A stretch of 64,000 nucleotides of DNA from Raillietiella orientalis (GCA_036172245.1 JAYWIR010000012.1:1736001-1800000); one strand, 5' to 3'; shown: positions 11,706 through 50,902, counted from the first letter of the stretch. Numbers and translations are program-made. The notes: a model not told the origin generated them from the letters alone.

Positions 11706-11738
11706 GTGAGTTCGAATCCCGCCCGGGGAAGGACCGCC
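11706..11738 (+). other. tRNA 3'-half / B-box fragment abutting the outer end of the left arm
   Basis: GTGAG-TTCGAAT-CCCGC-CCGGGGA-AGGACCGCC; 11710-11738 matches 13408-13436 at 28/29 nt. No recognisable tRNA 5' half. Confidence 0.6.
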
Positions 11739-13307
11739 AGCTGCCCCGCCCTTCCGACGCGCAAGGGCAAGCGCCAAATCGATGGGCGTCAATTCGATCC
11801 GGGGATCCCGGTCTTCCCAGGCAAAAGCGCGCACGGCGCGTCACCTCCAGGCCACGGTCCCGAGGGAAAGGGGGCAAGCCGGCGGACGCCGTGGGGCGCA
11901 GAGCGTGCCCTGGCCCACCGGCCCACAAGTTCAAGGGGGGATGAAAGGTACCGGGTGAAAAAGAGAAGGCACGCCTTTCGGTCTACGATGCGGGGAGTCG
12001 CGGGAGGGCCGAGTTCCTTCCTGCGACGCGTTTCAGGAACGGGAGGGAAGGGATCGTCCGGTAGAGGCAGGAGGCGAATTTCGGCGGGATCCCCATTGCT
12101 CCCAAGGCGCAGCGGGAGCATGGGTGGTTCCCTCCCGGATCGCCTCGTTGGAGTCTGGCGCTTCGCCGCCCGGACTGTTGGCTTCCTCAGGCGCCACAGT
12201 GGAGGAGAGGAAGGATGATCTTCCTTCAAGGACTCCCTCCTTCTCCTCTCCGCTCCCGGACCGCTCCCAGATCGAGGACGCCTCCCATCTCTTCGACGCG
12301 GCGCCTTCCGAACGGGTGGGCGAGGGGAAGCATCCGCTCCTGAGAAGCCGAGGCGCCCGGCCCAAAGCCCCACAAAACTCGGGGCAAAAACATCAAGGAT
12401 GGTGACGGCTCTGAAAGGTCAAAGAATGTGGTCCTGTGCTCACTGAGAGGCCACCATCTCCGCTCGACTCCGGACCTCTCCCTGCCTGAACACATAGGTC
12501 GGCTCCCTTCACTCCGACCTCCCTCCTGAGAAAACACCAGCGATTCTTCCCTTGAGGCAGGATGGCCGGCGCAGTGGTCTGGGAGTACCGGGGCGCAGCC
12601 GACCCGCCTGCGGCGGTGTCTCACGGGTGTCTCGGAGAGAGAACTTCGGGGTCAGATGTGCAGGCTTGAGTAGGGGAGTCGCTTACCTTTGGCGCAGTCG
12701 AGCCTTCTAGGGGCTTCCCTGCCAATCCTCCTCCCCATCCCCTCGTTGCTCCGGCCGCCGGCGATGTCCGACGCTTACTCTTTCCTGCCGGCCCGGTCGC
12801 TCCCCGTTTGGTCACCTTTCTTCCCGCTTTCCCTTCCTCCTCAGCATTCCGGATCTGTTTCCTCCCTCGGACCTTTTGACCTTTCCGTCCTCTGGTGCTC
12901 CCATCCTAGCAACCGTTTCCGTGCACCGTCAGGGAGCGCGCGAGTTTTCCTTCGACCTTTCCGGATGCTGAGGGGATCTTGGCAGTCAGACCACGGGTTG
13001 CTGAATAGCGCGTGCTATCTCCAAAGTAACGGGAATCAGCAGAACACTCTCTGGCTCGAAGAAACGGAAGGAGTCAGGAGAAAAACAACAATCGCATTGC
13101 CAAAACAGCTGGGGAAGGTGGATGCTGGGAAGTCTGCGGGCACCGAACTTCGCCCCTGGAAAGGTCTTCTGAGATCCCCTTCCCGTTCGAATTCCGCCTT
13201 TTGCTCGAGGTCCCTCTTCACCTCGCCTCCCGAAGGAGGTCCACAGCCATCACCCGGTCGACTTTCACAGCGGGTTATGGCAAGCGGCATGGCGATTCGA
13301 GGTGCAA

Positions 13308-13380
13308 GGGGGCGTAGCTCAGGTGGTAGAGCGCTCGCTTAGCATGCGAGAGGTTCCAGGATCGATGCCTGGCGCCTCCA
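13308..13380 (+). tRNA. tRNA-Ala-AGC: tRNA-Ala(AGC)
   Basis: 73 nt cloverleaf. Acceptor stem GGGGGCG/CGCCTCC with the G3:U70 Ala identity pair; anticodon arm CTCGC-TTAGCAT-GCGAG; T arm CCAGG-ATCGATG-CCTGG; TTTT terminator at 13387-13390. Confidence 0.97.
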
Positions 13381-13403
13381 TGGTTATTTTGCTCGCGGGC
13401 ATC

Positions 13404-13436
13404 GCGGGTTCGAGTCCCGCCCGGGGAAGGACCGCC
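13404..13436 (+). other. tRNA 3'-half / B-box fragment 23 nt downstream of tRNA-Ala (mirror copy at 22127-22159, minus)
   Basis: Perfect T arm GCGGG-TTCGAGT-CCCGC followed by an acceptor-like CCGGGGA; no D or anticodon arm. Confidence 0.65.
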
Positions 13437-13743
13437 TCCGAGAACAGGGGATGCGTCGTGGTTTTCCAGTCCGTCCGCCAGTTGGTCTGCAGGCTTCGCG
13501 TGCGTCGGTTGACACCCGATCGCGTTGGGGCGTTTATTTATAAAATAAACACACACGTCTGTGGCAGAACGTTTGATCCTGCCACGTTACTTATGAATAC
13601 GGGAAGGAACCTGCTGGGATCTGGCACGCAGGCCAGCGGGGTTCGCCTCGGCAGCACAGGGAAAGGGGAGAGACAAACAAAAAGAAGAAAACACAACGAA
13701 AAATGTAGTCCAAAAAATGGGAGAATGGGAGTTCGGGAAGGGA

Positions 13744-14333
13744 TTACTGTGTGCTGGTGGGTGTCCTCTGCATCCTTGTAAGGATGCCGGCAAGTTCCTG
13801 TTTTATGGTTCCCAGATGGTGCCATCTCGATGCTGTCCTCATGAAGAGGACAGCAAAATAGATGGCGTCCCTGTCGTTCTGGCTTTCTCTGGCGTTGCTC
13901 CATGCGACCTCGATCCCGCGTAGGCAGCAAAGTGCTGCTAGGTAGGGAATGCGGCCTGCCGGCGAGGGGGCGTGGCGCAGGAAGAGGCGCTTAACAACGT
14001 CTCTGGCCTTGCCGCCGGAGGTTCCAAGGGTCGCGGCAAAGAGTCCTTAAAGGGATCGGAGGGCAACACAGTCCACTAGGAGATGCGGGAAGGATTCCCG
14101 CTCCCCGCACCTTGCACAGTTTGGGTTCACGCACACCCTGTGTCCAGAGATGCCGGCATGCGTTGCACAGGAGGCTCCAGTGCAGCAGCATCAATGCGGT
14201 CTCCTGCCACTCTACGATGAGGGTGCAGGTGTTCATGAGCGCCGGGGCCCACTGCAGGTCTTCCTCCGTAATACTCGTAATACAGTAGCACTCCCCAGCT
14301 CAAAGGTCCATGAGGTCGAGCAATCGGGGTCGC
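13744..14333 (-). pseudogene. Decayed copy of unassigned ORF family A (left-arm duplicate)
   Basis: Mirror of 21230-21819. Confidence 0.6.
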
Positions 14334-14759
14334 AGCGTCGGTGAGCTGATCCGTCGTTCACTCGCCCAGTCTTTTCCTCCTTCCGGAGATCTGCACAGTA
14401 ACCTTCCATCTAGCCGTAAAGCTGCTTCCGATGTGCTCCCTAAGGGAGGGTAGCGCATTGGTGGTAGTCGAAAACTGCCGGATGCCTTTGCTGACTAGCC
14501 GGCATGGAAGTGGACCCTCCGGGGTCTTTCCAGATCATCAAGGAGCCCTTCAGTGTTCCCTGCGGTTGTGAAAATGGAGCGTATCTTTCGGTCCATGGCC
14601 TTTTCCTCCCCTTCCTTCTTTTACTCCTACTTCCTCCTCTCTCCGCTTTCCTGCACCTCCTTCGTCTCCTTCTTCCCCAGAGCGAACCGTTCTTCAGCTG
14701 GGCGAGAGAACCGTTCCTCGCTTCATCAGACTTTCCCCCTTCCTCCTTGACTCATCCTC

Positions 14760-15160
14760 AGGCACCAGTGTGGCGGCTGTCCCGACCTCCCTCGATGGCT
14801 CCTGGGCCGCGTCTGCGAATCCAGGTCTGCACTGAAAGGCAACGGAAGCAGCCTCCGGCATCTGCCAGGGAAACCCTTCTCTTTCGCAGGAAGGCATCCC
14901 ACCGGGTGAGGGTGCGGCTCTCCAGCCGATGGGCCCGCATCGATCGGACCAGTGAACCTCCCAGAGTCCCACGGAGAGGCCCTCCGGCTCTTCGAAGCCT
15001 CCTGACCTCGTGCGCCGACTCAGTTTCCGTAGCCTTTTCTTAAGTGATGGGAACAGGAAAGGGGAAGAGAAGGGCGCGTGCACCTACACAAAGCTCCCCT
15101 CGAAGGCTGCGCCCCACCTGCCGGGAAGTGCCGGGAGCATGGCTCTGGGGAGGGCTCTCG
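14760..15160 (-). pseudogene. Diverged repeat, probable decayed family A copy
   Basis: Colinear nucleotide similarity to 17655-18020, including an identical 23-mer CGGGAGCATGGCTCTGGGGAGGG (15132-15154 / 17994-18016). Minus-strand peptides PLRGTLG and HRLESRTL versus PLRGILE and HRLENRAL, with synonymous differences. Confidence 0.55.
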
Positions 15161-17654
15161 GACCTCCCTCCCTCTGAAAGGAGGCTGCGGCTGCTTTCGG
15201 GAGCTGCTCCTATGGGAGCAAAGAGGGGAAGAGGTTGTAGGGCTTGGCGAAGGTCCCCCCTCCTCTTTTGGACAGGGAGGACACCCTCTTCCCAACAACG
15301 GCCACGGCGGGAAGAGCAGAGACGGCTGGCGCTCCCCTCCCGAGGGTTCATGTCCAAGGCCACCTCCAAGGGGCAACTTCGGAAACCGAGGGGTCCTTAC
15401 GTGGGAGGCGAGGGCTAGCGACCCTGCGACCGGGGAGCGAGCTGTTAGGCCACGCCCTGATTGACCTCGGGACGAGTGGGCAGCCAGTGGAGAGACAGGG
15501 CGTCCCGGAGCCTCAGGCTCTGTGGGGGAGAGGAAGGGCGACGTTTTTGGAGCCACGCGTGCTGAAGGAGCAACGGCCACCTTCTCAGGAAGGTGGATCG
15601 TCCGTGAGCCAGTGGCGAACGCAGGCCACAGCCAACAGCAAGGAGGGAGGGTCCTTCCATCCACCCCCTATCAGGGATCCAAACCGGAATAAAACCTGAG
15701 GTTCTCTCGGTACCCCAGGGGTCTCTGTGACCAGCTTTGCAGGACCCTCGGAAAGGCAGAACTCCCTCGCCGGCAAAAGCCTCCCGGCAACGGGCGTGAT
15801 GTCGCCATGGCAAGCGAGGAGTCCTCTTTCTAGAGGAAGGGGTGCGGAACCGCTCTTTTTTACCCTCTGGAGTCTTCTGGACCGAGTGGAGCAGCCAGGA
15901 GGGGGAGGAGGGAAGGGGAGAAGGAGGGGAGGATTTTCCGGGATGAGTTCGTCCCGGGCGTCTTTCCGTCCCCTCCTTTCTCTTCTATCGCTCCCTTCTC
16001 GGGGGCGGGGTTTTCGCCACTCGTCCCCTTCTCCCTCGCGAAGGGCGCTCCCCAGCTGCAGCTGCGATCGCCGAAGGCCATGAGGGTGGAAAGGGCTGCT
16101 CCTGGAGGACCCTTCCTCGCTAAGGAAGAAACTGCCACCTCGCTCCCCAAAATAGGGGCGAAGTTCCGTGGCCGCCTGAAGTTGTCTTTCATTCGCGGGT
16201 CCTCTCCTGTCCCTGCAGCCCTCTTGACTGCAGTGGGCAGTTCGCCACCCCAGGCCAGCAGGGGTCGCACAACAGCTCTCTCAAATTGGTGGACGTCGAG
16301 GACGATGTTTTTTTTGGCTTCGCCCCCCACAGCTCCCAAGATTGAGGCTGCCAATTCAACGAAGACTCCATAAGTCCCCACCCTCCTATCCAGAGCATTC
16401 CAACCGGAAGGGAGCCTGTTCGATCACGGACCTTCCCAGGAGGGATCCGTCACCTTGCACACGGGCAGTATCGCGGCCGCTGAACGAAAGGGAGGAGCGA
16501 TTATTGCTAGTTGAAAACTTTCACGAGGGATCCTTGGGGACGTTCCCCACTTACCGCCCCAGACCCACGGCCGAAGGCTGAGTTGTCTCTCCCGAAACCA
16601 CCACCTCCAGGTAGTGCAGAGGATCCAGCAGACAGACCAGTGTCCAGGAGTGAGGTGGGGCTTCAGGGTGAAGGGGGTCCACTGAAACGTTAGAATGGAG
16701 TCGAAATTCTCCTCCCTTCTTCCGGAGCCCTCGAGGACCGACTGATCTGTTCCTCGAGGAAGAACAGGATACCGTGCCGCGCCCCTTTCGCTCCCAGGAC
16801 TACATGATGCCCTCCGGCATCATATAGTTTTGCAGGCGAGGTTCAACCGACGGAGGGGTCATCGTTTTGGAAGAGCCGGTCCAGTGAGGAGACAAGCCCT
16901 TCCTGCCCCTCCCTTCTTTCCTTCTGGACGTAGGGAAAGAGGTGTGTGAAATTCCCTGGAGGGTTCCCGTTCTCTCCTCCTCCCTCCTCCCTATCTTTCC
17001 ATCTTGTCCATCTGGATAGCCAGAAGTGAGGATGCCTCCACATCCTTGGCGCTCCTTCCCTTCACCCTCTCCCGCCCTCACCAGATGCTCGGACGGACGC
17101 ACGGGAGCCGGGAGCGCAGAAAGGGCGCGCGTAGGGATTCGCCCGCTCTTCCGGTCCTCCCACACCCTGAGGGCTAGGATTCCCCGAACGTTCCAGGAAA
17201 ATCGAATGCGTGTCGTCTTCTTCCCCCTCACCTCCTTAGAGTTTTTCCCCTTCAATGCGGAAAGTGAAAGGAAGAAAGGAAGGAGAAGGAGGAAGAGGAG
17301 GAGTATGAGGAAAGGGAATCTAGCGACGAACGGAAGGGAGGAATGGAGGCGCTTGGAAACGCTGAGCGTTCCCCCAAGTCAGCTCCGAGAATGCACCCTA
17401 TGTGACTTCTTTACTACCCGAAATCGCCCGCCAGTGGCGGGCATTCTCTCCCTTTCCCGAGGCGCAGCAGCGAGTGGCGCAGGTCGCGAGAGATTCTCTT
17501 CCGCACCCTCCCGTCAGCACCTTGGCCTGTGTGCGCAGCCCGCGTGGAGCACCCTGGCGCGCCGCCACAGGAGGAAAAAGGTTTCTTGACCGTTGAGCCG
17601 CGGGAACCCGTCTTTTCCCTGCCGGTTTCTCTCCCGTCCCTCTCCCGCACTCTT

Positions 17655-18020
17655 GACCAGTGGGCAGTTATCCGCCCCAGGCCACCTGAGAGGGGCGCGC
17701 CGACTCCAAGCGGCCTGGCGGCTTCCCTTGCTCACCGGCGTTACCGGTGAGGGGGTGGAACGACGCTAACTGCGGCTGGACCTCCGGATGAGTGCACGAT
17801 TCTCCAGCCGGTGGATGCTTCGGTCGGGCCTGTGGACTTTCTAGGATCCCGCGGAGCGGCCTCCCACCCTCGAGCGCCATCTCGATCCTCGTATCCTTTT
17901 CTTAAATCACGTGAGGACAGGAAAGGAAAAGATGGGGTCTCCAGCACCCTCAAGGTCAGAGCTTTTCCCGATGGCTCATCCACCGGGGAGTGACGGGAGC
18001 ATGGCTCTGGGGAGGGTGGA
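17655..18020 (-). pseudogene. Diverged repeat, probable decayed family A copy
   Basis: Paralogue of 14760-15160. Minus strand GACCCCATCTTTTCCTTTCCTGTCCTC...ATCGAGATGGC...CTCCGCGGGATCCTA aligns with arm copy GACGCCATCTATTTTGCTGTCCTC...ATCGAGATGGC...CTTGCCGGCATCCTT. Stops and frameshifts present. Confidence 0.55.
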
Positions 18021-19859
18021 CCACTCCAAGAGGCCCGGTCGCTTCCCTTGCCTCAAGGTAGTCGAAGGGCATGATGCAACCTCGCGTGCTCTTCTGATGT
18101 CAGTAGCAAAGCAGGGAGAGCAAGGGGGAGGCAAACTCTGTTTTGCAGGTCAGGTGACGGGGAGATTGCGTGTAGAGGAGCAACACGGCAACTCCTTGAG
18201 GCAGGGCCAAGAAAGGGACCTCCGGAGGAAGGAATCATCTCGGAGTTCCCTTCTTTTTCTATCACCCCAACCTCCAGCACCAGCACCAGCAGAAAGATCG
18301 GAGTCTCGAGGAGCAGGGGCCAAAAGGATGAAGACCCGTGGTGACTGTGACTCGTAGGGTTCCCCAGGGCCGAAGAGAATTCCCGTTCCGGCTCTCGAGA
18401 CCACGCGCGGGGCAAATCCAGGAGGGGGAAGGGATAAGAGTAGGGATGGTTCCGGTGACAGGAAGATCGGGTCTCCTTGTGGCAGCTCTGGACCCAAGAA
18501 GGGCTTCCCATGCTAGATCTGCAGGCCAACTCCTGGATCCACGTTGACGAAGCCCGGCGAAGACAGCCCAATCCGCTCCGAAGCCCCGGCAATAGCGTTG
18601 GGAAGCGGCCGCGGCGTCCGAGGGAGGAACATCGCGTCTCGAGGAGATGACCGACAGAAGGCGCCACCGGGGACCCTTGCCCACGAGTCCGCCCTTCCGA
18701 CCGGCGGCGGCTCCATCTGGCTACGGCGACCCCTGCCCCGAAAGGGAGCGAGGCGATTCTGCGTGCGTGCGAAGGTCGAGGACGAATCTTTTCGGTTCGG
18801 GAATAGGAACCGCCGCGGGACCTGGGAGTATAGCGCGAACCATTGCCACGAGCCAGCTGCGAGGAGCGCCTTGCCGCTGGACTTCCGCCCCAGAACGAAG
18901 AAACTGGTCGCTTGCTCCCGGGACGCGTTCCCCCCGGGAAGAGAGCATCAAGGCGAAGGAGGGAGGGGGGAGTAAAAGGCGCTCGCCGAATTCAGGATCT
19001 CGCTCCTCCGAAACGCTCTCGAGCGTTCCCCATACTTGACTTGGAGAGCAGGGTTGACACCGCCTCCTGTGACCCACGAAGCGAGGCCGAAAGCCGAGCA
19101 TGCGGCGGCAGGAGGCAGCGCCGCGGCGACACAGGCCCCGGAGAGAAGAGGAATGGGATCCGAGGTTCCTGCGGTGCATGTGTGCCTCCCCTGCCCTCCC
19201 CGCTAATGGGCTGGAAACGGACGCACGTACGACCGCAACAGGAGACTGTCTCTGCCCGGGATCAACTCGGTTCCCTTCCCTCTTGTGCTCAGTGCAGACA
19301 GCCGCCCCCGATAGGACGGGCAGAGAGTCTCCGCGGGTCGCCGCGGGCAGCGACCTCCCCGTGTGTTGAGGACCAAGCGACGGCAGTGGGATGGCCACCC
19401 CGTGTGGGGAAAGAAAGGAAATCCGTCGAGGGGAACGCGCGCATGCGCACAGAGGCGGCGACGGCTTCGTAGGCTGGCAGCCCTGGAGGAAGGGAACTAC
19501 TGGATCCCTCCCAAGCTCGGGACACCGCAGTGCCTGGTTACAGGTAGCAGCTGGAACGTGGGCGAAGATCAATTCGGAGGGACCGCGCTGCCTGTGATGC
19601 TCCCGATGCGTTCGCTGCCCGCTGCGGGAGGTCCCAGCCGGAAGCCCCAGCTAGAGCATTCCCCCTTGCCGCAGCACTGCCCTCCCTAAGGGAGAGCGAA
19701 ATGAAAAATTGCCTGCGGGTGATGTGGGAAGTCAGCTGCGAAATAGGTTGCAGGAAGAAACCGCTTGGTGGATAGACAGCTGGGCGACCCATTGACCCCA
19801 AGTGCCGCACCGAAAGGACTGCTCCGCTGGGCAGAGATTCTCGGCATCTCCCCCTTCCT

Positions 19860-20340
19860 ATGAGAAACCCCAGTTTCCTGCGGTACTGATGGACAGCTCC
19901 ACTCTCCCTCTACAGTGGCAGGAGCCGGCAATGCTGATGTCTCACGAGGACCTCCCACGCTATACCCTCCAGGGAGAGTCTTGGGGAAAGGGAAACCCTC
20001 CCGCACCCGCCTGTTGACTGCGCTATCCTCCGGCTCCTTTGGGAACGTCCTCAGAGACGGACATCCTCAGATGGCGGACAGCCTCAGAGACGTTATAAGT
20101 GCTTCTTCCTGCGGGATGCCCTGTCGCCAGCCGCATCCTGCCTGCGCGGGATAGCGGGCGGCGGCCTGGAGCCCTCTTGCAAGAGGCCGGTACGACAGGG
20201 ACGCCATACACTCTCAGGAAATTGAGATGAGGTGGCTTCATCCGGGGACTGCACAGGTGGAACTTGAGGTCATCTTTCAGGGTATGCAAAGAACACTCCC
20301 CAATGGACTGGGGTCACTTTCTGATCCCCCCATCAATAGG
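19860..20340 (+). pseudogene. Decayed copy of unassigned ORF family A
   Basis: Frameshifted peptides QFPAVLMDSSTLPLQWQEPAMLMSH, VDCAILRLLW, LRGI..AWS, YDRDAI, MRWLHPGTAQVELEVIFQGMQRTLP are colinear with 21230-21819; identical 16-mer ACGACAGGGACGCCAT at 20192 and 21686. Confidence 0.65.
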
Positions 20341-20619
20341 TTTGTTTATTTTTTATATATGTATTTATTTTTAGATTGTTTTCCTTCCAGTAGCAACCTC
20401 ACGGGAAGGTCGTTACCATTGATCTGCGATGTTGGGAATCTTCTATGCTTTTCCCTGTTTCGTTGTTTTTCTTCCAGAGGTTTTTTTTGATTCTCAAAGA
20501 GTGCTGATAACGTTCGCCCACTTGGGGGGAGTGGGAGCTTACGAAGCTCTTTAGCACTGTTGACGTCACTCGAGGGTGCGTATGACTTTTCAAGTTCGAA
20601 GGTAATCCCGGGGGAACCA

Positions 20620-21110
20620 CCCCATGAATCCAGGAAGACTTCGGAGGAAGAAGCACGTTCCTCTTACGATTGGGAAGGAACCCTTTCCCTGGTTGTCTCC
20701 GAAGGAAACCCCGAAGGGATCCTCTTCCTTGTTCTTTCCGGAGGTACTTCCCAAACCGGCCTAATCCTCGTTTCTTCTCCGGAGAGGACCCAGAAGAATC
20801 CGTTCCTGGAATTTCTTCTCCAGAGGTCACCCTTAATGGAACCGAAACTTTTTTGTTTCCTCCTCTGAAGAGAACCCCGAAAGGACTCTTCCCAATTTCT
20901 GTGAAGGACGCTCCTCAAAGGGAGCGGCACAGTTCTTGACATTCTGGAGTGGTCAACCCCCCGAGGGGGTTTCAAAGATCCCCAAGGCATGCGATAGAAA
21001 GGAAAAACGCTGAAGGGCTCCTTGATGATCTGGAAGGACCCCGGAGGGTCCACTTCCATGCCGGCTAGTCAGCAAAGGCATCCGGCAGTTTTCGACTACC
21101 ACCAATGCGC
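20620..21110. repeat. Dispersed diverged repeat (family B), copy 1; straddles the inner end of the right arm
   Basis: Colinear with 48620-49050, e.g. TGAATCCAGGAAG, CGTTCCTCTTACG, TCCTCTGAAGAGA, TTCCCAATTTC, CCTTGATG..GAAGGA.CCCGGA.GGTC.ACTTC, GCATCCGG. Confidence 0.8.
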
Positions 21111-21229
21111 TACCCTCCCTTAGGGAGCACATCGGAAGCAGCTTTACGGCTAGATGGAAGGTTACTGTGCAGATCTCCGGAAGGAGGAAAAGACTGGGCG
21201 AGTGAACGACGGATCAGCTCACCGACGCT

Positions 21230-21819
21230 GCGACCCCGATTGCTCGACCTCATGGACCTTTGAGCTGGGGAGTGCTACTGTATTACGAGTATTACGGAGG
21301 AAGACCTGCAGTGGGCCCCGGCGCTCATGAACACCTGCACCCTCATCGTAGAGTGGCAGGAGACCGCATTGATGCTGCTGCACTGGAGCCTCCTGTGCAA
21401 CGCATGCCGGCATCTCTGGACACAGGGTGTGCGTGAACCCAAACTGTGCAAGGTGCGGGGAGCGGGAATCCTTCCCGCATCTCCTAGTGGACTGTGTTGC
21501 CCTCCGATCCCTTTAAGGACTCTTTGCCGCGACCCTTGGAACCTCCGGCGGCAAGGCCAGAGACGTTGTTAAGCGCCTCTTCCTGCGCCACGCCCCCTCG
21601 CCGGCAGGCCGCATTCCCTACCTAGCAGCACTTTGCTGCCTACGCGGGATCGAGGTCGCATGGAGCAACGCCAGAGAAAGCCAGAACGACAGGGACGCCA
21701 TCTATTTTGCTGTCCTCTTCATGAGGACAGCATCGAGATGGCACCATCTGGGAACCATAAAACAGGAACTTGCCGGCATCCTTACAAGGATGCAGAGGAC
21801 ACCCACCAGCACACAGTAA
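21230..21819 (+). pseudogene. Decayed copy of unassigned ORF family A (right arm)
   Basis: EEDLQWAPALMNTCTLIVEWQETALMLLH, then after a frameshift VDCVALRSL*GLFAATLGTSGGKARDVVKRLFLRHAP...LRGIEVAWSNARESQNDRDAIYFAVLFMRTASRWHHLGTIKQELAGILTRMQRT...*. Internal stop and frameshifts. Confidence 0.65.
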
Positions 21820-22182
21820 TCCCTTCCCGAACTCCCATTCTCCCATTTTTTGGACTACATTTTTCGTTGTGTTTTCTTCTTTTTGTTTGTCTCTCCCCTT
21901 TCCCTGTGCTGCCGAGGCGAACCCCGCTGGCCTGCGTGCCAGATCCCAGCAGGTTCCTTCCCGTATTCATAAGTAACGTGGCAGGATCAAACGTTCTGCC
22001 ACAGACGTGTGTGTTTATTTTATAAATAAACGCCCCAACGCGATCGGGTGTCAACCGACGCACGCGAAGCCTGCAGACCAACTGGCGGACGGACTGGAAA
22101 ACCACGACGCATCCCCTGTTCTCGGAGGCGGTCCTTCCCCGGGCGGGACTCGAACCCGCGATGCCCGCGAGCAAAATAACCA

Positions 22183-22255
22183 TGGAGGCGCCAGGCATCG
22201 ATCCTGGAACCTCTCGCATGCTAAGCGAGCGCTCTACCACCTGAGCTACGCCCCC
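22183..22255 (-). tRNA. tRNA-Ala-AGC: tRNA-Ala(AGC), identical copy in the right arm
   Basis: Exact reverse complement of 13308-13380. Confidence 0.97.
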
Positions 22256-25196
22256 TTGCACCTCGAATCGCCATGCCGCTTGTCATAACCCGCTGTGAAA
22301 GTCGACCGGGTGATGGCTGTGGACCTCCTTCGGGAGGCGAGGTGAAGAGGGACCTCGAGCAAAAGGCGGAATTCGAACGGGAAGGGGATCTCAGAAGACC
22401 TTTCCAGGGGCGAAGTTCGGTGCCCGCAGACTTCCCAGCATCCACCTTCCCCAGCTGTTTTGGCAATGCGATTGTTGTTTTTCTCCTGACTCCTTCCGTT
22501 TCTTCGAGCCAGAGAGTGTTCTGCTGATTCCCGTTACTTTGGAGATAGCACGCGCTATTCAGCAACCCGTGGTCTGACTGCCAAGATCCCCTCAGCATCC
22601 GGAAAGGTCGAAGGAAAACTCGCGCGCTCCCTGACGGTGCACGGAAACGGTTGCTAGGATGGGAGCACCAGAGGACGGAAAGGTCAAAAGGTCCGAGGGA
22701 GGAAACAGATCCGGAATGCTGAGGAGGAAGGGAAAGCGGGAAGAAAGGTGACCAAACGGGGAGCGACCGGGCCGGCAGGAAAGAGTAAGCGTCGGACATC
22801 GCCGGCGGCCGGAGCAACGAGGGGATGGGGAGGAGGATTGGCAGGGAAGCCCCTAGAAGGCTCGACTGCGCCAAAGGTAAGCGACTCCCCTACTCAAGCC
22901 TGCACATCTGACCCCGAAGTTCTCTCTCCGAGACACCCGTGAGACACCGCCGCAGGCGGGTCGGCTGCGCCCCGGTACTCCCAGACCACTGCGCCGGCCA
23001 TCCTGCCTCAAGGGAAGAATCGCTGGTGTTTTCTCAGGAGGGAGGTCGGAGTGAAGGGAGCCGACCTATGTGTTCAGGCAGGGAGAGGTCCGGAGTCGAG
23101 CGGAGATGGTGGCCTCTCAGTGAGCACAGGACCACATTCTTTGACCTTTCAGAGCCGTCACCATCCTTGATGTTTTTGCCCCGAGTTTTGTGGGGCTTTG
23201 GGCCGGGCGCCTCGGCTTCTCAGGAGCGGATGCTTCCCCTCGCCCACCCGTTCGGAAGGCGCCGCGTCGAAGAGATGGGAGGCGTCCTCGATCTGGGAGC
23301 GGTCCGGGAGCGGAGAGGAGAAGGAGGGAGTCCTTGAAGGAAGATCATCCTTCCTCTCCTCCACTGTGGCGCCTGAGGAAGCCAACAGTCCGGGCGGCGA
23401 AGCGCCAGACTCCAACGAGGCGATCCGGGAGGGAACCACCCATGCTCCCGCTGCGCCTTGGGAGCAATGGGGATCCCGCCGAAATTCGCCTCCTGCCTCT
23501 ACCGGACGATCCCTTCCCTCCCGTTCCTGAAACGCGTCGCAGGAAGGAACTCGGCCCTCCCGCGACTCCCCGCATCGTAGACCGAAAGGCGTGCCTTCTC
23601 TTTTTCACCCGGTACCTTTCATCCCCCCTTGAACTTGTGGGCCGGTGGGCCAGGGCACGCTCTGCGCCCCACGGCGTCCGCCGGCTTGCCCCCTTTCCCT
23701 CGGGACCGTGGCCTGGAGGTGACGCGCCGTGCGCGCTTTTGCCTGGGAAGACCGGGATCCCCGGATCGAATTGACGCCCATCGATTTGGCGCTTGCCCTT
23801 GCGCGTCGGAAGGGCGGGGCAGCTTGCAGGGAAAACTAAGCCAGAAGGGAAGACTCTCTGGCTGGCACCACGGACGACCCCGACTTGCCTGTGGGGCTGG
23901 AGCGGGGGCAGGCAACCGGGAGGAATCTCCAAGGATGGTCCGATGGCTAAGTTCATCGGGCAGGTCAAACGGGAGGCGGTGGTGATGGGATGCGAGGTGC
24001 GAAGCGGCAACTTCCCCTTCCCCTTCCTTTCTTGGGCCACGCTGTGGAGCCTCCTTGGAGGAGGGGCCACTCCGAGAAGAGTGACGTCACGCTGGGGATC
24101 ACGCTGGGCGACTTTTTCGGAGACAGGTGGAGGTTCATCCCCTGCCCGCTGCCCGCTGGTCTGTAGAAAAGAGGAGAAAGCGCATTAAGAGCCACCTGGA
24201 ACCGGCCTCCCTCGCTTTCCCGCGCAGGAAGGAAGGGCGTAGCTCTCTCCATCCACTCTCGTAGTCCGCCAGCGTGCTCCTTTGGTCGCGCAGCTGCGTG
24301 GCTGCTGCCACGTGGCTGTGCAGCACGGGAGAGGTGGAACGCCCTACGGAGACGCCTACTGCCGGCAGCGAATGCCCAGAGCCGCCCGTCAAGGTCGCGG
24401 ACTGACCGAGGGAAGCGCTTCCTCTTTCCCTCCTCAGCCATCCAGCCGTGGGGTCGGGAGACCGCCCTGCTCGAGACTCTGGAGCGGGCAGGAGGAGGGC
24501 GGGGCTGCGGGTAGCTGGTTCGGAGCTTCGAGACGTGTCTCATCCCGGTCGAGCGCTCGGGAGGTTGGGGGTAAAGGGGAGCAGGGAACCGAAGGAACCT
24601 CCGTCAATGCTTGTCGTAGTCCATGGCTGAGGACGTGGCTGCGAGCGATGCGCCATCCCTTCTTCCGGGGATGAAGAGACCGGTGCTCCTCCCTCCTTCT
24701 CCTCCTCCCCGTCTCCCTTCTCTGAGAGTGCGCGCCTCGAGTCCCGGATCCCGGATTTTCCCTCTCTGGCAATGCTGCAAAGAGCTACCGGGAGGCTCCC
24801 TCAGGTGCGAGAAGAGCTCTCCGGGAAGGAGGGAGGCTTCCGGGAAAAAGAAGCGGGCTGCGCTCTCCGATGTGCTGGCAGGAGTGGGACGCGGGGAGTG
24901 GGAATGGGTGGCGTGGAGCAAGGAAGAAAACAAGGAGTGCTGTGGGAAGAGTCCCGGGTCGAATTTCTCCGCTGTCCTCTTCCAGACTCCTGCCAGACGG
25001 GTGTCAAGCCAACCGTCTCTGTCATCTCTCCATGCCGGTGCAGCATCCGCAACTCCCGGCGTTCGATGAGATCCTGGAACCCGGCAGTCTCCGAATAGCC
25101 AGCCAAGCTTCGTCCCGTGACCTCCCCTCCTCCTCCATGGCCATCTCCTCAAGGGAGTTCGTGCAAATCGTTCTAGTTGAAAGAAGCAGGCTTTTT

Positions 25197-25201
<5 letters not shown>

Positions 25202-25228
<27 letters not shown>
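25202..25228. repeat. Poly(A) homopolymer, 27 nt
   Basis: Directly visible; the longest of many A/T runs in the window. Confidence 0.9.
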
Positions 25229-25231
<3 letters not shown>

Positions 25232-26543
25232 GAGAAGAAATCGTCCAAGAGATCCATCCTTTTTCTACGGTCATGCTCACAATCCATGCGAGCAGCCAAA
25301 CAAACCCTAAGAGCCTCCCCATCCTCCTCCTCGCGCAGCACGATTACGGAAACCGTGGGTGCTTTGCACGGAGCCAACAAGCCGCGCCAATTTCAAGCCT
25401 TACCTTCTGGAATCTGCAGTCTGCTTCCAACAGGACGACCGGAAAGCCCCAGAGAACTCCTGTCTGTGCCATTCCGAGCTAAAAGTGAATCGAATTCCGC
25501 GACGATCTCCCCTTCAGTGGGGGGAATCTTGTGCCCAGAGCTTGTCGCATGCTCGCAGCTATGTCTTCGGACCAGCCGAGAAAACCCAAGTCACGCACCG
25601 AACCCGATCCAAATGGTTTGCGCAGAGCATCCGTTCGAAATCTCCCGTTCGGTGGCTCTCGTGAGCTTCCGCGCTGCCTCCTCCTTGTGCACCCCTGCGG
25701 AGGACGGACGGATTTTGCGCGCGACCTTATTTTTCCTTTTGTTTCGAGACGCGCCTTCGAACGCGTTCCTCTGCGCCACGCTTTGCTGCGCGTTGCTTCT
25801 TCCCCCGCGTCACACTGCCTCGAATACTGCAGATGCTGGATGCTGAGTAAGCTTTCTCCGCACCTTTCTCCCTGCGGCGTGCTTCCTGACGTTTCCACCG
25901 CCGGCGTGGCTCGCAAATGCACCCATCAGCCACTCCCGATGGGATGAGCGTGAGAGACGAGCATCCGCAAACGGCCGGCCCGAGTCCTGGCGGCGGCACC
26001 GGGACGTTTCGGAAGGAGAGTCCGCTGCCAGGCGTCTCGCGAGCGCCGCGGGTCAGCTGCGCGGTGGGTGGAAACGTGTCGAAATCCTGCGGCTGGCCGA
26101 AGAAGACGTCCGGGTCTTCCTCAGGGGTGTTGCAATCGGCCGCCGCTCCGCGCGCAGCGCTCGCTCTCGCTCGTGCGCGCGCGCCCCGCTAGAGTGCGCG
26201 CTGCCCGAGCTGCTAACAGCTGTGCGTTCAGCTGCAGTCGAGTGTCGGTTGGTGTTTTGCAAAGTACCGTACAAGAATCAATATAATTCAATTTTGTGCG
26301 CAGAAATCGAGCAGTCTTGAAATTCACATCCGACCGAACATTTATCAGTAAATTCTACTCTCACTTGTTTTGTTTCCTTGTTATCGATTTGCAGCTTACC
26401 ACATACGGATGTGCCACGGAATAAAATTATTACTACCGAATTGATTGTTTTGCATGCGTTTTTTTTTTTTTTTTTTTTCTATTAATGCTTTAGAGAAACC
26501 AGAATTTGCCATTCTCAGGAAGTGAATTTGAGAAAAGGAAAAC

Positions 26544-28374
26544 ATGAATGTAAAGAAAATTGTCGGAGATGCAGGGACGTTTCTCAGCAGAGCTGTGCAG
26601 GTATAACGAAGCATTTTCATTTTATCCGTTGTATTTCACACGATCATATGTCATAAAGTAAAGCAGTGATTTTTTCTTGATTGCTTATTTGAAATTTTCA
26701 CCCTGACTTACATTTAAAAAAAAAAAAAAAAACTGCGTTGTAGTATACGGAAGAAAAATTGGGAACAAGTGAAAAAACGGAGCTTGATACCCATTTTGAA
26801 ACCCTGTCTTTGAAATGTGAAGTTATGAGAAAATGGACAGAAAAGCTTGTGAATGGTACTAAGGCAGCATTAGTACCGAATCCTGGTAGTAAAATTAATG
26901 CATCTATTTTGAATGTCTTGTGATCATGCTGAGATAGTAGTAATCAATGAACAATAAGTATGAGTATTTCATGTTGCATGTTTATTTTGTAAGACGTGGC
27001 ATGCCCATGTTATGTTGAACATTTGGAAATGGCAGTTATGAACTACACAATTCTTTGTTTCTAGAACAAGATTTCAAAGTTTCAGTCACGAATTTTCTTT
27101 AAAGATTACTTATGTGTTCACCATTTAGAAGGTTCCCTTTTATTGTGTACACATACGAGCACCCCAACTGTTGTTTATTCATAACTTAATGATTTCCTTT
27201 CCTTCGAATTTCTCAATTTTTCCATATCAACATATTTCCTTAGCCCTTCTTAAAGACTCTGTTTGTCTATCAGAACTACGAACTGTCCAGAGCTGTCCAA
27301 TTTGTGTGTTTTTATTTATTTAAAATTCTTTGCCCTAAAGTGTAGACTGAATGATTGAATTTTTTTTTTTTTTTGTTGTCAGTGATGCCTGCCCTCAAGT
27401 TATTTATTTCAAAGTTATATAATGGTCTGTAATGGGTGTGAAATTTCAATTTGTTTTTAATGCTTTATGCAGGATATCGTTTGGAGGAATACGTGATGGA
27501 GAAGATAGACAAACCACGGCCCTCACGGCTGAGCCACTGGGAATATTTAGGAAGTGATATGTTGGATGCAGGACATGAATTTGGTCAAAGTACAGCATAT
27601 GGTATGCGATCATTTACAGCACACTCTTTCATCAAAACATGCTACTCTTGACAGGCATGGCACTCATCAAGATTGGAATGTTAGAGAAAAAGTTGGGGCA
27701 TGAGGAACGTGAATTTATTCAGAATGTAGCTCAGTGTTACGTGCAGCCATTAACAAAATTTCTGGATGGAGAAGTGAAAACAATTTTGAAGGAAAAAAAG
27801 CTTTTGGAGAACAAGCGGTGAGAATGGCAGCACTATGTACTGATGTAACATTCTCCAGCCTTGATCTTGATGCCTGCAAAAATCGATTGCGTAAGGCAAA
27901 GAACTTGGAAAGTCAACATCAGGTAGGAAAAATAAGTATTAACATGTGGGTGGGTGGGATAATTGGTTACCTTCCTACATGCTGCATAGCTCAAGGATAA
28001 GGTAAATCAGAGAGAGCTTTTAGAACAGGTGTGGGTTGAAGTTTCTCGTGTTGGATAAGTTGAATTGAAAGTCTTGTAGGCGGAGACAGAAGTAAGGGTG
28101 GCTCAAGAAGAATTTGACAAACAGACAGAAGTGACTCGATTATTGCTAGAGAATGTAAGCAGTGCCCAGAGCTCTCACTTACGCCATCTGCATGATTTGG
28201 TGGAATGTCAAGCTCGTTTTTATAACCAGTGTTCCCAACTGACCCAGGAGCTTCAGAAGGAGCTTGCCAGGTACTTTTGCTTTTAGAGATTGCCTTAGGA
28301 CCCCTTGTTTCAGTCTTTCGTTGGGTTCCAATGTTTCTGGAGCATTTTCCCAGCAGCTTCACATCACTCCCTGA
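26544..28374 (+). CDS. SH3GLB1: Endophilin-B (SH3GLB1/2, C. elegans erp-1 family) N-BAR protein
   Basis: Exons: 26544-26600 (MNVKKIVGDAGTFLSRAVQ), 26744-26885 (YTEEKLGTSEKTELDTHFE...VPNP), 27473-27601, 27655-27817, 27859-27922 (LDLDACKNRLRKAK), probable 27990-28028 (LKDKVNQRELLEQ), 28080-28270 (AETEVRVAQEEFDKQTEVTRLLLE...ELQKELA), 28314-28374 (stop). All GT-AG and in phase. The last exon is less certain. Confidence 0.93.
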
Positions 28375-40700: not shown

Positions 40701-43700
40701 AGCGGCCGGCTCCCGCTGCCGGAACGCGGGTTGAGCCGGTCGTTCTAAAAATAGTTCCGGAGGGAAAGGGAGGATCAATGCGAGCGAAAGTGTCCGGGAG
40801 TCTGGTGGAAGGCCTCTGCCGCAGTGACCAGCGAGCACAACCCCTAAGGGGCGGGGGATGAGGACAGTGTCGCGGAACAGTAAGGGAACGGGAGCAGAAG
40901 TTGAGCCCCTGGTTCGTGAGGGATTGACGGACGCGACCGGAGAGTTCGCGCCACCTGGGCGGGGAGGTGGGCGTCCGGACAACCAGAATGCACACGCGCG
41001 CGCCCCTCGGCAGTCACGGGAAGGGCACACCGCACCGCGAGGGGGGAACCTCGGTCAGTCTCCCATCGCGTTTCCTCGGGCGACGTTCCGTCCCCCCCGG
41101 CAAAGCGTGGGCGCTGGTCTCCTGGGACCCCGGGAGGAGGCCGGGAGAGGCAAAGACGTGGGCGGAAGACGTACATTTCTACTCGTTCCACCATGATCCC
41201 CCAGGATTCCGTGGCTTCGTCTAGGCTGCTCTGGAAAGGAGACAGACGCTGTGTGAGGGGGTCTTAGATCCCCTGCGGGGCTGCTCGGGCTGCGAGGACG
41301 CGGAGGGCACCCTGTCCGCGCTAGCCGGCCCGCGTTTCTCCCCCGTCCGCGGGCTCGCGGAGAAAAACTCAGGCCCTTCCTCGAGACCTTCCGAGAGCCC
41401 GCAGCCCTACCTGCCCATGCCCCTACCTGCATGGTGGTGGAGATGTTTCCCCTCTCGCTAAGGATCTCGTGCAGGTAGCGCGTGCCCAGGGTGTTGCGGA
41501 GGGTCGTCTGTGCCAGCAGCTTCGTCGAGTGGTGGGCATTCTCGACGTTGGCGACCGAGATGGTGGCGCTGGACACCCGGTAGTAGACCACGGCGTCCAC
41601 GCTCACTGTGACGCTGTCCTTAGTGAGCACCTGCGGGCGGAAAGGAGAGGAGCGACTTCGGGGCCCGGGAAGGGGGGGGGGAAGGCAGAGGCCCCTCCTG
41701 GCGCTCGGGCGCGTGCGCGATGGGGGCGCGCGGGAAGCACAAGGGTGGGGGCGTCGCCACCGCCCAGGGAGTCCCGCGGTGAAGGAAGGGTGAGAGCGCG
41801 AAAGAGGTCACCCCCCCTCCCGAGCGGAAGCGGGGCCTACCCTGGCGTGTGGGAGTTGATCGAATCCTTCTCGTTCACCTGGAGTGTCTGCACCTTCCCG
41901 TATCCGGCGGCTTTGATGAGAGGAAACAAGACAGGAAGGCGATCCGCGTCTATCGGGGGTCAAGGAGGGCGGTGCCCGAGTACGGCCCACTCGATTCGTC
42001 CACATGGGTCCGGGAGGATCGGACGCCCTTGTCCTCCCCTACAAGCCTTCCAGACCGACCCTGGTGAGCGGAGGATCGTAGGTCCCGGAATCTTCCGGGG
42101 TGGCGGCCTTCTGGGGAAGAGGGTGGGTGAGGGAGTGGCCTCCTTCCTGCTACATCCCTCCTGTTTAATAGGCTCTCGGGAATTTGCCTCTGACGGCACG
42201 GGGGACTTCGGAGACTCGCGCTAAGGCATGCAGGTGAGGGCGGCTGGCCCTCAAGGCTTCGGCCATCGGCTGCATGGCGCGGGGACGTCCCCCTCCGCGT
42301 GGCAACTCCTAGAGTCAAGCCTTCCTGGATTTGGGGGGCAGAGGGGAGGAGAGCTCGCGCGCACGTTCGTCGGGTCTTCCAACCGGATCAGTCAGAGACC
42401 TGCAGGCCGGCCCGTCGAGTACACTCTGGGAAGAATAGAGCAGGGACGCGCAAGGGAGGAGGATTTCCTCGCGGGACCGGTTCGTACCCCGGGAGAAGGG
42501 GAAGGCCTGACGAGCAACCGACTCACAGGGCCGGGAAGCAGGAGGAGGATCAAAGGTGCCCATGGGAGGCGTTTGTCGTCCGGGGCCGACAAAGAGGACC
42601 AGCAGAGGCTCGATGAAGGGCTGCTCCTGGCGCTGCACCCCCTTCGCCCCAGCCATCGGACTCACCTCCTGCGGGGGGACGTCAAAGGACACCGTCCGGA
42701 GGTCCACCTTGATGTACTGCTCGATGCACGGCAGCACGAAGAAGATCCCTGGGGGAAAAAGCCCTTTGCTGAGGGGGGCTGAAGGGCGGGCTTCCCTCTC
42801 GAGACCGGCCCTTCCCTTCCTGTCCGGAGGAGAGAGACACGGGCAGGACGGGATGCAAACGGCTTCTAGTGATACTCCCTCCTTCTCCTTTCGCCGTCGC
42901 GTCTCCTCGTCCTCCCCCTTGCAGTCTCATCCTGGTGCAGAGGCTGTGGGCCTTCCCTCCTCCTCTCCCCGATTTCGCACGCGGGAAGGAAGCCCAAACC
43001 CCAGAGATGCCTTCCTCGTTCCTCAGAGAGACGCTTGGGGGCGTCCTCTCTGAGGAACGAGGGAGGAGGTGAGGGGGCGACCTTTTCCCACCTGGCCCTT
43101 TGGCTCCTCCGGACAGCAGCCTTCCCAGACGGAAGATGACAGCCCTCTCGTACTCCTGGACCACCTGAAAGCAGACGGTGAGGTGACAAGCAAGCTGGGG
43201 TTTGTCCCTGCTCTCTCAGTTCTTTGACCTCAGGTCGCGGGCGTCCTCCGTGTCTCCCGGGGAGGCGGCCGCACACATGCGTGCTTTCCTCCCCTCCCTC
43301 CCTTCTTTTCCATCCTATACGGGAGCTCCCTATTGCAGGAAGAGGAGGGGAAGGTGGAGAAAAGAAACCTAGGGGAGTGGCAGTTCTGAAGAGCGCCGCT
43401 GGAGGCATCCCCTTTGCCGCATCGAGAAAGCGACGTCGCGGAGACAGCGAGCCTCACAGGCGCGCGCACGTCAGTGGAGCGAGGTGGTGGTCACCCCCAC
43501 GCGTGCAGGGTGGGGGTGGGGGATGGGATTGGTGCCGAGGGATCCTTTGGAACTCCTAATCCGGAAGCGTGGTGTTCCAGGGACTCCACCCATACTTCCC
43601 CCCTCCCTGCTGCAGTCCCAGAGGCAGAAGAAAAAATCCTTCCCAGAGGAGGTTCCGTTCGGTAAGCGGAACCGCCTTCCGGCAAGCTCGCGTGAGGATC

Positions 43701-47683: not shown

Positions 47684-48619
47684 AGAGGAGGAGGAAGAAG
47701 GAAGCAACACTACTGGCCTACGGATCTTCAGCGGCGGAGCCTCAGGAGGAGGGAGGCTCCGGGGATCACCAGCAGCTGCGCGCCGCGCTCTGCAGGGCTG
47801 CTGGCTTGCGTTCGGGATCGTACCTTTCTGAGCCTGATCACAGAGTTTCGACCACTCGTGCCACATGCTCCTCGAGGGGTCTTGCATCCCTCTTTCTACG
47901 GCATCTTTGGGGACAGGGTCGCCTTATGGTGCACGTGCGGCGCCAGTTTTTCATCAGAGAAAAATCCTGGCGCTTCTGGGAGCCCTGTCCCACTCTGGCA
48001 GCCTACGGGCACCCTTTCAATCTCCTTCCCTTCCTCCCTTCCTGGTAGTACAGGCAGAGCAGTCCTTTGGGTCGGCCGAGAACGGGTGGCCCATTCTCCT
48101 CCTCCATCAGCCACGTACACGGCGCACCATGTCCCCGCGTGTGCTGCTACCTTGGAGACGCGAGTGTGTTGCTCAACGTATCCATGGGTCTTCCATGCTT
48201 CGGGAACCTCCGTTCTGGCAGACAACTCAAAGCTCCCACGAAAACGATGGGAGGGAAAGACAGTCTTTGGGCCGGAGAGATCAAGAAACACGGAGGAAGG
48301 GATCCATGGTCGAGGATGCAGTCACGCCGTGCTGCGGATCTTGCACGCGAGGACCACGCAGGCGTCGACGGTTATCACCTCGGTTGTCAGCATCACATTG
48401 CCTCTTAGGGAGCGAAGATCTCAAAACAGCTAGGAGGAGAGCGCTGGCTTGGCGTTCTGAAGAAGATGATGGGTTTTCTTTTTTTGCTTTGGTTCTCAAG
48501 AGGTGCTGAAGAACCGTCTGCTTTCTTAGCGGGGACTCGCGAAGCTCTTGAACGCTGTCCATGCAGCCAGAGAGTGCGCGTGACTCTTCAAGCTATACGA
48601 GGTCACTACAGAGGGACCG

Positions 48620-50829: not shown

Positions 50830-50902
50830 GCCTCGGTAGCGCAGTAGGTAGCGCGTAAGTCTCATAATCTTAAGGTCGTGAGTTCGATCCTCACCCGGGG
50901 CA
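50830..50902 (+). tRNA. tRNA-Met-CAT: tRNA-Met(CAT), elongator type
   Basis: 73 nt. Acceptor GCCTCGG/CCGGGGC (G1:C72, so not initiator); anticodon loop CTCATAA; T arm GTGAG-TTCGATC-CTCAC; TTTT runs downstream; AT-rich upstream flank. Confidence 0.97.

Follow-up and report, generated by a model that had tools for sequence, protein, structure and literature searches.

Family A, a repeated, colinear and frame-broken ORF found in the 64-kb window analyzed here (the whole 64,000-nt stretch of DNA), probably represents dead, 5′-truncated 3′-terminal fragments, about 0.7 kb each, of the ORF2 of a non-LTR (LINE-type) retrotransposon. The family consists of three physical copies, two of them independent. 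An earlier, sequence-only reading of this DNA had it fill an 8.1-kb cassette, of which it actually occupies roughly 1.7 kb. That reading proposed either an undescribed gene family specific to the lineage or the ORF of a mobile element, and the evidence presented below favours the second alternative. Family A is most likely ordinary genome debris and not a new kind of gene; the region should be masked as repeat debris instead of being treated as a candidate gene family, and it has little import beyond annotation.

Copies of family A and their decay

The supported copies of family A, placed by that reading at 13744-14333(-), ~19860-20340(+) and 21230-21819(+), are referred to here as copies 1, 4 and 5 (Table 1), while claimed copies 2 and 3 denote the stretches at ~14760-15160(-) and ~17655-18020(-), respectively. 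The sequence-only reading counted at least five colinear copies; three physical copies stand, which would derive from only two independent insertions, while claimed copies 2 and 3 do not belong to the family. The shared motifs proposed in that reading were recovered by a six-frame scan of the 64-kb window, in which LM[DN]..TL..[QE]WQE.A, VDC..LR.L, DRDAI, RW.H.GT and EL..I...MQRT each have exactly three sites, located at about 13.76-14.24 kb(-), 19.89-20.30 kb(+) and 21.32-21.80 kb(+). Likewise, the stops or frameshifts ascribed to every copy were found in all three supported copies.

Table 1. Positions of family A copies, the zinc knuckle and the inverted repeat arms in the window.
Feature	Position	Strand	Evidence or content
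Family A copy 1, best preserved	13727..14457	(-)	Translations; DNA alignment to copy 4; P0001 end
Family A copy 4, older and more decayed	19673..20330	(+)	tblastn, DNA alignment, motif scan, shuffles
Family A copy 5, mirror image of copy 1, inside right arm	21106..21836	(+)	Inverted repeat; tblastn
CCHC zinc knuckle of copy 1, C-x2-C-x7-H-x4-C, CARCGERESFPHLLVDC	14068..14118	(-)	Pfam PF13966; mirror at 21445-21495(+)
Inverted repeat, left arm	11736..14557		Carries tRNA-Ala(AGC) 13308-13380(+) and family A copy 1
Inverted repeat, right arm	21006..23827		Carries family A copy 5 and tRNA-Ala(AGC) 22183-22255(-)

The ORF of copy 1 is divided into three pieces, at 14135-14299, 14050-14187 and 13747-14046 (all on the (-) strand), by a +1 frameshift somewhere within 14135-14187 and an in-frame TAA at 14047-14049; a further break, a TGA, lies upstream at 14300-14302. 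The TAA at 13744-13746 is the natural stop of family A, as present in copy 1. The limit at 13727 corresponds to the end of the local DNA alignment with copy 4, while at the opposite limit, 14457, a 21-nt upstream match is found at an equal offset in copies 1 and 4 (z=3.1; score reached by 3 of 200 shuffles). Over its entire extent, copy 5 equals copy 1 exactly, and tblastn recovers all three ORF pieces in it with 100% identity.

Copy 4 is spread over three reading frames, at about 19826-19954, 19938-20153 and 20155-20295 (+). It has lost the family stop and, in comparison with copy 1, segments of 36, 24 and 12 nt; a 17-nt tandem repeat was detected inside it by Tandem Repeats Finder (20048-20092). 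The copy 1 pieces gave colinear tblastn matches at 19826-20295(+), with E-values of 5.7e-5, 1.9e-4 and 2.5e-6, the next best match of these pieces elsewhere in the window having an E-value of at least 0.16. In DNA Smith-Waterman alignments evaluated against dinucleotide shuffles, copy 4 matched copy 1 with z=26.4 (0 of 100 shuffles reached the score), and with z=28.5 when only the ORF part was considered (0 of 200).

Shuffled controls, a check that the sequence-only reading had itself suggested, uphold copy 4 in this way but not the other two candidates: against copy 1, 14760-15160(-) obtained z=-0.7, with 90 of 100 shuffles reaching its score, and 17655-18020(-) obtained z=1.1, with 23 of 100. 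No tblastn match of the family A pieces falls within either claimed copy; the lowest E-value in the 14.4-19.8 kb interior, 0.001, corresponds to 15708-15794, a site outside both of them that was matched by a query piece outside the family A frame. The three ORF pieces, searched as profile HMMs, matched only their own building sequences in the window, the best non-member score being E=0.061 at 17366-17593(+), with E=9.4 for 14697-15083(-). In the six-frame motif scan, no motif coincidences were observed at 14.76-15.16 kb, and those at 17.8 kb are limited to 3-4 letters in the wrong order (DRD and IEM, read from one set of bases in two frames, plus LRGI and AWS). At the same time, 14997-15154 and 17859-18016 align with each other at 69.5% over 164 nt (E about 1e-11 to 1e-12, z=38). 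Judged by these alignments, claimed copies 2 and 3 belong to a repeat distinct from family A, in which each has the other as its sole relative.

Inverted repeat and tRNA genes

The arms of the inverted repeat are 99.86% identical and are separated by a spacer of 6,448 nt. They differ at 4 of 2,822 sites (11738, 13280, 14527 and 14554), none of which lies within family A. Because copies 1 and 5 are identical and are located in the arms of a near-identical inverted repeat, they would represent one insertion, recently duplicated. The apparently symmetric array is the product of one recent inverted duplication that also doubled the tRNA-Ala gene. The array had been described as symmetric beyond the recent arms; nevertheless, the sole inverted similarity within the spacer is that of copy 4 to copy 1, and additional inverted symmetry is ruled out, as the other spacer repeats are direct.

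A position next to tRNA genes, also attributed to the whole family, applies to just one of the two independent copies, with a tRNA gene less than 0.4 kb away: the distance from the stop codon of copy 1 to tRNA-Ala is 364 nt, while copy 4 is about 1.9 kb from the nearest tRNA. The window has a third tRNA, tRNA-Met (50830-50902), with no family A copy nearby. TRE and Dewa are LINEs that target tRNA genes. Such targeting is not supported for family A, as the copies keep no constant position or distance to tRNA genes, although with two independent copies this is a weak test. Within 10 kb, the region contains tRNA-Ala twice, tRNA-like half-molecule fragments and the 5′ half of a U4 snRNA.

The zinc knuckle and the C-terminal tail

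The statement that family A carries no known domain has to be revised. The knuckle-bearing piece of copy 1 matches the Pfam family PF13966, zf-RVT, with E=0.0033 and 18.5 bits, below the 27.5-bit gathering cut-off; residues 6-42 of the piece align to positions 43-80 of the 85 in the profile. The three ORF pieces matched no other Pfam family. When the breaks were read through as X, the zf-RVT match had E=0.033. Reading through the frameshift with its four-letter step as X gave E=0.0098 and 0.056 in two variants and no match in the third, and in no case raised the score. As controls, none of the 85 other long ORFs of the window and none of nine read-through frames of flanking DNA or copy 4 matched zf-RVT. 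In copy 4, both N-terminal cysteines of the knuckle are gone, while E-T-x2-H-x4-C is retained.

When the 46-residue piece that holds the knuckle was compared with the ESM-Atlas, 21 of its 30 nearest neighbours were zf-RVT clusters, the best of them with a score of 0.91. The same family applies to all ten of its best family-bearing matches, and the recognition score was 2469. The top match (0.93) is an unnamed cluster, and the Atlas outcome describes itself as a lead.

Between the knuckle and the stop, copy 1 encodes a tail of ~105 residues. An exhaustive phmmer search of this tail against 1.84 billion representative proteins retrieved a single match, P0001, an unnamed predicted protein of 87 residues from a metagenome (a 2,870-nt JGI/IMG contig). 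Along 84 residues of the copy 1 tail it is 64% identical (E=2.3e-22), and both terminate at the identical alignment column. P0001 has neither annotation nor a Pfam domain, and the knuckle falls outside its coverage. Among word-sharing candidates for longer relatives, 0 of 274 for the tail and 0 of 844 for the knuckle plus tail were significant, and a profile search at near lengths returned only P0001, itself part of the profile. Searches for the DNA context of relatives produced 267 and 598 (metagenome contigs), 98 (genome) and 59 (viral) pattern matches, none of which was confirmed. The 100-residue tail reached a best ESM-Atlas score of 0.89 with unnamed bacterial clusters, which is uninformative, and the knuckle plus tail had no match below E=0.5 in a PDB sequence search. 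The 147-residue read-through, modeled by AlphaFold2 without alignment depth, had a mean pLDDT of 44.7. Since very large protein collections contain almost nothing like this tail, its parent element probably comes from a poorly sampled lineage.

Possible past selection on the ORF

Synonymous changes between copies had been interpreted as the result of past purifying selection. Different codons are used at 22 of 63 identical residues, and the NG86 dN/dS is 0.48 over 141 protein-guided codons. Over 112 codons, dN/dS is 0.52; neutral simulations with substitutions only (n=150) averaged 0.86, and two of them gave values equal to or lower than that observed. In a frame-blind DNA alignment, the mismatches per codon position are 57/158, 59/157 and 69/158, with no third-position excess (p=0.52). 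The proposed selection is favoured by dN/dS values of 0.48-0.52, below neutral, but not by the codon-position test, and we consider the comparison of these sequences as no more than suggestive of past purifying selection on family A. Based on its P0001 relative and the protein-guided dN/dS, family A was once real coding sequence.

Origin of family A

The homology between copies is restricted to the ORF end and stops about 20 nt past the stop codon. At this point, about 13 nt past the stop of copy 1, there is an 8-nt repeat (13716-13731) composed of two units of CTCCCATT on the coding strand. The flanks of copies 4 and 1 are not alignable (downstream, z=1.7; 18 of 200 shuffles reach the score). 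Their non-homologous flanks indicate that these two copies would be separate insertions and not the result of a tandem segmental duplication, and their unequal decay is expected for insertions that differ in age.

According to the mechanism that we propose, target-primed reverse transcription would begin at the 3′ terminus of the element's RNA and halt early, in such a way that only the ORF2 tail would be left, i.e., the C-terminal zinc knuckle located downstream of the RT, the ~105-residue tail and the ORF stop, which would then decay neutrally. Two insertions of different age may have occurred in this manner, copy 4 being the older one and copy 1 the other. Later, the 2.8-kb block with copy 1 and the tRNA-Ala gene would have been duplicated in inverted orientation, producing copy 5 and the apparent symmetry. 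The birth-and-death process formerly invoked would be a fair description only in the sense of dead insertions of different ages lying side by side.

A Pfam search for RT domains gave no match in any of the three read-through frames of the 1.7 kb upstream of copy 1, 14186-15900(-), or of the 2 kb upstream of copy 4, 17800-19832(+), and no endonuclease, either AP-type or restriction-like, was found in either of these regions or in the 85 long ORFs of the window. A missing RT/endonuclease remnant is what 5′ truncation predicts, which does not in itself demonstrate LINE membership. Neither a poly(A) tail nor a recognizable target-site duplication was found, the 5′ ends being undefined.

These absences, with no copy linked to an RT or endonuclease, would also fit the pseudogenised last exons of host genes from a lineage-specific family, maybe one domesticated with a zf-RVT-like knuckle, copied by local segmental duplication in place of retrotransposition. 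This origin agrees as well with the presence of all copies within 8 kb, with the demonstrable derivation of one pair from an inverted segmental duplication, and with the lack of annotation of the tail's single database relative. Nevertheless, we regard it as unlikely, since the sole domain signal is typical of LINE ORF2, the flanks of copies 4 and 1 differ, and the homology ends shortly past the stop codon, where a small tandem repeat is located.

Slightly less likely still is a mobile element of another class, such as an LTR retroelement, a Penelope-like element or a DNA transposon with a C-terminal zinc knuckle. Short CCHC knuckles are found in several element classes, the zf-RVT match is sub-threshold, and placement in a clade needs an RT domain. 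Against this possibility, the C-x2-C-x7-H-x4-C knuckle with its E-[ST]-x2-H fits the zf-RVT profile and does not fit the gag-type spacing, CX2CX4HX4C. Additionally, the flanks showed no integrase, RNase H, gag or transposase domain, and the 2.8-kb arms were the only terminal repeats found.

We find it improbable, more so than the two preceding alternatives, that family A represents the C-terminal module of a non-LTR retrotransposon lineage not yet catalogued, from an animal clade that is poorly sampled, and that the element prefers to insert into a Pol III/small-RNA gene cluster. Chance similarity in GC-rich DNA, with no family at all, explains claimed copies 2 and 3 (low z values, no profile match and 3-4-letter coincidences) but has virtually no likelihood for the three real copies, where it is refuted by z values of 26-28 that no shuffle reached, three colinear tblastn matches and an external relative.

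Elsewhere in the window, a stomatin-type exon is present at about 41.4-41.6 kb(-), with E=1.6e-22 to solved stomatin chains. This exon, together with the absence of long ORFs, points to an animal host, and LINE debris is abundant in animals.

Comparison with known elements

Among published elements, zf-RVT is reported in ORF2 of a TRAS-like LINE from insects (PMC5563155), and Grem-LINE1 of Mucor is described with AP endonuclease, RVT and zf-RVT (bioRxiv 10.1101/706580). Family A differs from these elements in that its match is below the cut-off, no RT or endonuclease is attached to it, and its tail has one relative, P0001. It resembles the zf-RVT region of non-LTR ORF2 proteins in its CCHC knuckle with an E-[ST]-x2-H-x4-C core, near the C-terminus of a long ORF.

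The repetitive tail of CR1 is given as ATTCTRTG(n) in the review PMC5381603. A CR1 octamer tail was discarded for family A, whose unit, CTCCCATT, does not match ATTCTRTG; this unit is present twice and lies close to the stop codon. Nevertheless, family A is similar to the 5′-truncated CR1 LINEs of vertebrates in consisting of short dead copies that include only the 3′ end of ORF2 and that seem to end in an 8-nt repeat instead of poly(A).

Family A loci and the inverted repeat

Family A, a repeated and frame-broken ORF, probably represents the dead tails of two independent LINE-type insertions, to which two false copies had been added. The sequence-only reading counted five colinear copies; three of these loci (copies 1, 4 and 5) are real and two are independent, whereas the two at 14760-15160(-) and 17655-18020(-) give scores like those of shuffled DNA. 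When the whole window was scanned, each of the long shared motifs was found at the three real loci only.

One inverted repeat dominates the region, with a 6,448-nt spacer between its arms. The arms differ by 4 mismatches in 2,822 nt (11738, 13280, 14527 and 14554; 99.86% identity), three of them at most 31 nt from the arm ends. Copies 1 and 5, one in each arm, have the same sequence and therefore count as one copy; one of the two dead tails would thus have been doubled through a recent inverted duplication. This duplication, which also doubled a tRNA-Ala(AGC) gene, could be either a genuine palindrome of recent origin or an error of the assembly.

Based on sequence comparison, the copy at ~19.8-20.3 kb(+), copy 4, is a true relative of copy 1. 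Three copy 1 ORF pieces matched it colinearly in tblastn searches (E=5.7e-5, 1.9e-4 and 2.5e-6), the next best match elsewhere in the window having an E-value of at least 0.16. The local DNA alignment of the two copies reached z=26.4 (0/100 dinucleotide shuffles as high), and that of the ORF part alone z=28.5 (0/200).

The claimed copies 2 and 3 aligned to copy 1 with z=-0.7 and z=1.1, scores reached by 90/100 and 23/100 shuffles, respectively; plus-strand and unrelated control regions were similarly shuffle-like. When tblastn queries were taken from copy 1, from copy 4 and from P0001, an unnamed metagenome protein resembling the family A tail, zero matches fell inside either interval. The lowest tblastn E-value in the 5.4-kb interior (0.001, at 15708-15794) fell outside both claimed copies and came from a query piece out of the family A frame. 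Profile HMMs of the three ORF pieces matched their own members only, with a top non-member E-value of 0.061 at 17366-17593(+) and E=9.4 at 14697-15083(-). A motif scan at 17.8 kb retrieved just LRGI, AWS and, from one set of bases read in two frames, DRD and IEM; their order is unlike that of family A. The segments 14997-15154 and 17859-18016 were rejected as copies 2 and 3; they form a separate direct low-copy repeat (69.5% over 164 nt, z=38) unrelated to family A, and the proposed symmetry of the array beyond the arms is therefore lost.

A second direct repeat in the spacer, 16196-16257 versus 17623-17684 (79.7% over 64 nt), is likewise unrelated to family A. Pfam scans of 14186-15900(-) and of the 17800-19832 plus frames yielded no domain.

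Coordinates of the features discussed in the text
Feature	Position	Strand	Remark
Left arm	11736-14557
Right arm	21006-23827
Copy 1	13744-14333	-
Copy 1 piece 1	14299-14135	-	contains LMNTCTLIVEWQETALMLLHWSL
Copy 1 piece 2	14187-14050	-	ends GISGHRVCVNPNCARCGERESFPHLLVDCVALRSL; entered after +1 frameshift
Copy 1 in-frame TAA	14047-14049	-	between pieces 2 and 3
Copy 1 piece 3	14046-13747	-	100-residue tail, end ...MQRTPTSTQ
Copy 1 stop	13744-13746	-	directly after the tail
Copy 5	21230-21819	+
tRNA-Ala(AGC)	13308-13380	+
tRNA-Ala(AGC)	22183-22255	-
tRNA-Met	50830-50902
26-nt motif GTTCGARTCCCGCCCGGGGAAGGACC	11710-11735	+	adjoins outer edge of left arm
26-nt motif GTTCGARTCCCGCCCGGGGAAGGACC	13408-13433	+	28 nt downstream of tRNA-Ala
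26-nt motif GTTCGARTCCCGCCCGGGGAAGGACC	22130-22155	-	28 nt downstream of tRNA-Ala
U4 snRNA fragment	16451-16527	+	in spacer
A27 run	25202-25228
T20 run	26459-26478
A17 run	26716-26732
Stomatin-family exon	~41418-41639	-

Anatomy and coding history

Copy 1 is read in three pieces on the minus strand, with its +1 frameshift located somewhere within 14187-14135. Copy 4 has decayed further: three frames are needed to read it, stretches of 36, 24 and 12 nt present in copy 1 are deleted from it, it contains a 17-nt tandem repeat (20048-20092), and it lacks the first two knuckle cysteines and the family stop. The local DNA homology between the two copies reaches 13727/20330, ~20 nt beyond the stop, and its end coincides with an 8-nt x2 repeat, CTCCCATT (coding strand), at 13716-13731. 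The downstream flanks could not be aligned (z=1.7, 18/200 shuffles), and upstream there is a single 21-nt match at equal offset (14457/19673; z=3.1, 3/200 shuffles).

In a set of 1.84 billion representative proteins, P0001 is the only relative of the tail. This 87-residue protein without a Pfam domain comes from a 2,870-nt JGI/IMG contig; it shares 64% identity over 84 residues with the tail (E=2.3e-22), and the two sequences finish at one and the same alignment column. Searches for longer relatives and for the DNA context of relatives were empty, and the structure model was unusably poor (pLDDT 44.7).

The earlier proposal of past purifying selection is favoured by one test and not by another. 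Over 141 protein-guided codons, copies 1 and 4 encode the same residue at 63, using different codons at 22 of them, and the NG86 dN/dS is 0.48. Through the simulation pipeline the pair gave 0.52 (112 codons), compared with a neutral mean of 0.86 (sd 0.19), and 2/150 simulations were as low; these were substitution-only, with divergence and pipeline as for the real pair, and ignored transition and CpG bias. By contrast, mismatches in the frame-blind DNA alignment did not differ among codon positions (57/158, 59/157 and 69/158; p=0.52). Given this flat distribution and the biases that the simulation ignores, past purifying selection on family A is no more than plausible from the copy 1/copy 4 pair alone.

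Genomic surroundings

Three tRNA genes are present in the window. Copy 1 and tRNA-Ala are arranged tail to tail, with 364 nt between the end of the copy and the gene; copy 4 lies ~1.9 kb from the nearest tRNA, and no family A copy was found near tRNA-Met. These distances do not bear out the suggested proximity to tRNA genes, and with two independent copies only, no tRNA targeting can be claimed. The 26-nt motif, which resembles a tRNA T-arm plus acceptor 3′ half, occurs three times versus 0 expected by chance; it could be the head of a tRNA-derived SINE or part of a tRNA pseudogene.

The U4 spliceosomal snRNA match covers the 5′ half (~73 nt), the 3′ 65 model positions being absent. It scored 43.6 bits, slightly below the 46-bit Rfam cut-off (E=9.8e-9 in a 401-base search and 3.3e-7 in a 13.5-kb search), and is probably a truncated U4 pseudogene. 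A dispersed repeat in the same orientation joins 20542-20744 and 20853-20925 to 48540-48727 and 48796-48868 (68% over 209 nt; 78% over 73 nt), one site lying between copies 4 and 5 and the other ~2 kb upstream of tRNA-Met; the single long ORF scanned (20402-20914, -) had no Pfam match.

The 64-kb window contains no long ORFs, and its G+C content ranges from 0.33 to 0.67. The A27, T20 and A17 homopolymers sit at the edge of a G+C drop from 0.60 to 0.40 and may be tails of other retroposed elements. At ~41.4-41.6 kb(-), one ORF piece matches Band_7 (Pfam E=2.4e-9) and is an exon from a gene of the stomatin family (Band_7/SPFH); 74 of its residues align with animal stomatin chains of solved structure (E=1.6e-22). 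Because of this exon, the window was treated as animal genomic DNA.

Identity of the element

The sole Pfam family found in the three copy 1 pieces was zf-RVT (PF13966), a C-terminal zinc knuckle, matched over profile positions 43-80 of 85 with E=0.0033 and 18.5 bits, under the 27.5-bit cut-off. The match was kept when breaks were read through as X (E=0.033) and in two of three frameshift variants (E=0.0098 and 0.056); the third variant lost it, and the score rose in none of the frameshift read-throughs. As controls, 0/85 other long ORFs of the window and 0/9 read-through frames of neighbouring DNA or copy 4 matched zf-RVT. In ESM-Atlas, 21 of 30 neighbours of the 46-residue knuckle piece belonged to the zf-RVT set (best score 0.91); the first hit (0.93) was unnamed, and the ten best family-bearing hits were all zf-RVT.

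No RT or endonuclease remnant was found in the sequence upstream of copy 1 (1.7 kb) or of copy 4 (2 kb). The position of the knuckle close to the end of the ORF, the restriction of homology to that end, flanks that bear no relation to each other, differing degrees of decay and the absence of 5′ portions make it fairly probable, on sequence grounds, that family A represents 5′-truncated LINE insertions.

We regard family A as ordinary repeat debris, at most another example of a known element type. In the part of PMC5563155 that concerns them, TRAS-like LINEs are described with zf-RVT in ORF2, and a figure legend in bioRxiv 10.1101/706580 gives AP endonuclease, RVT and zf-RVT for Grem-LINE1.
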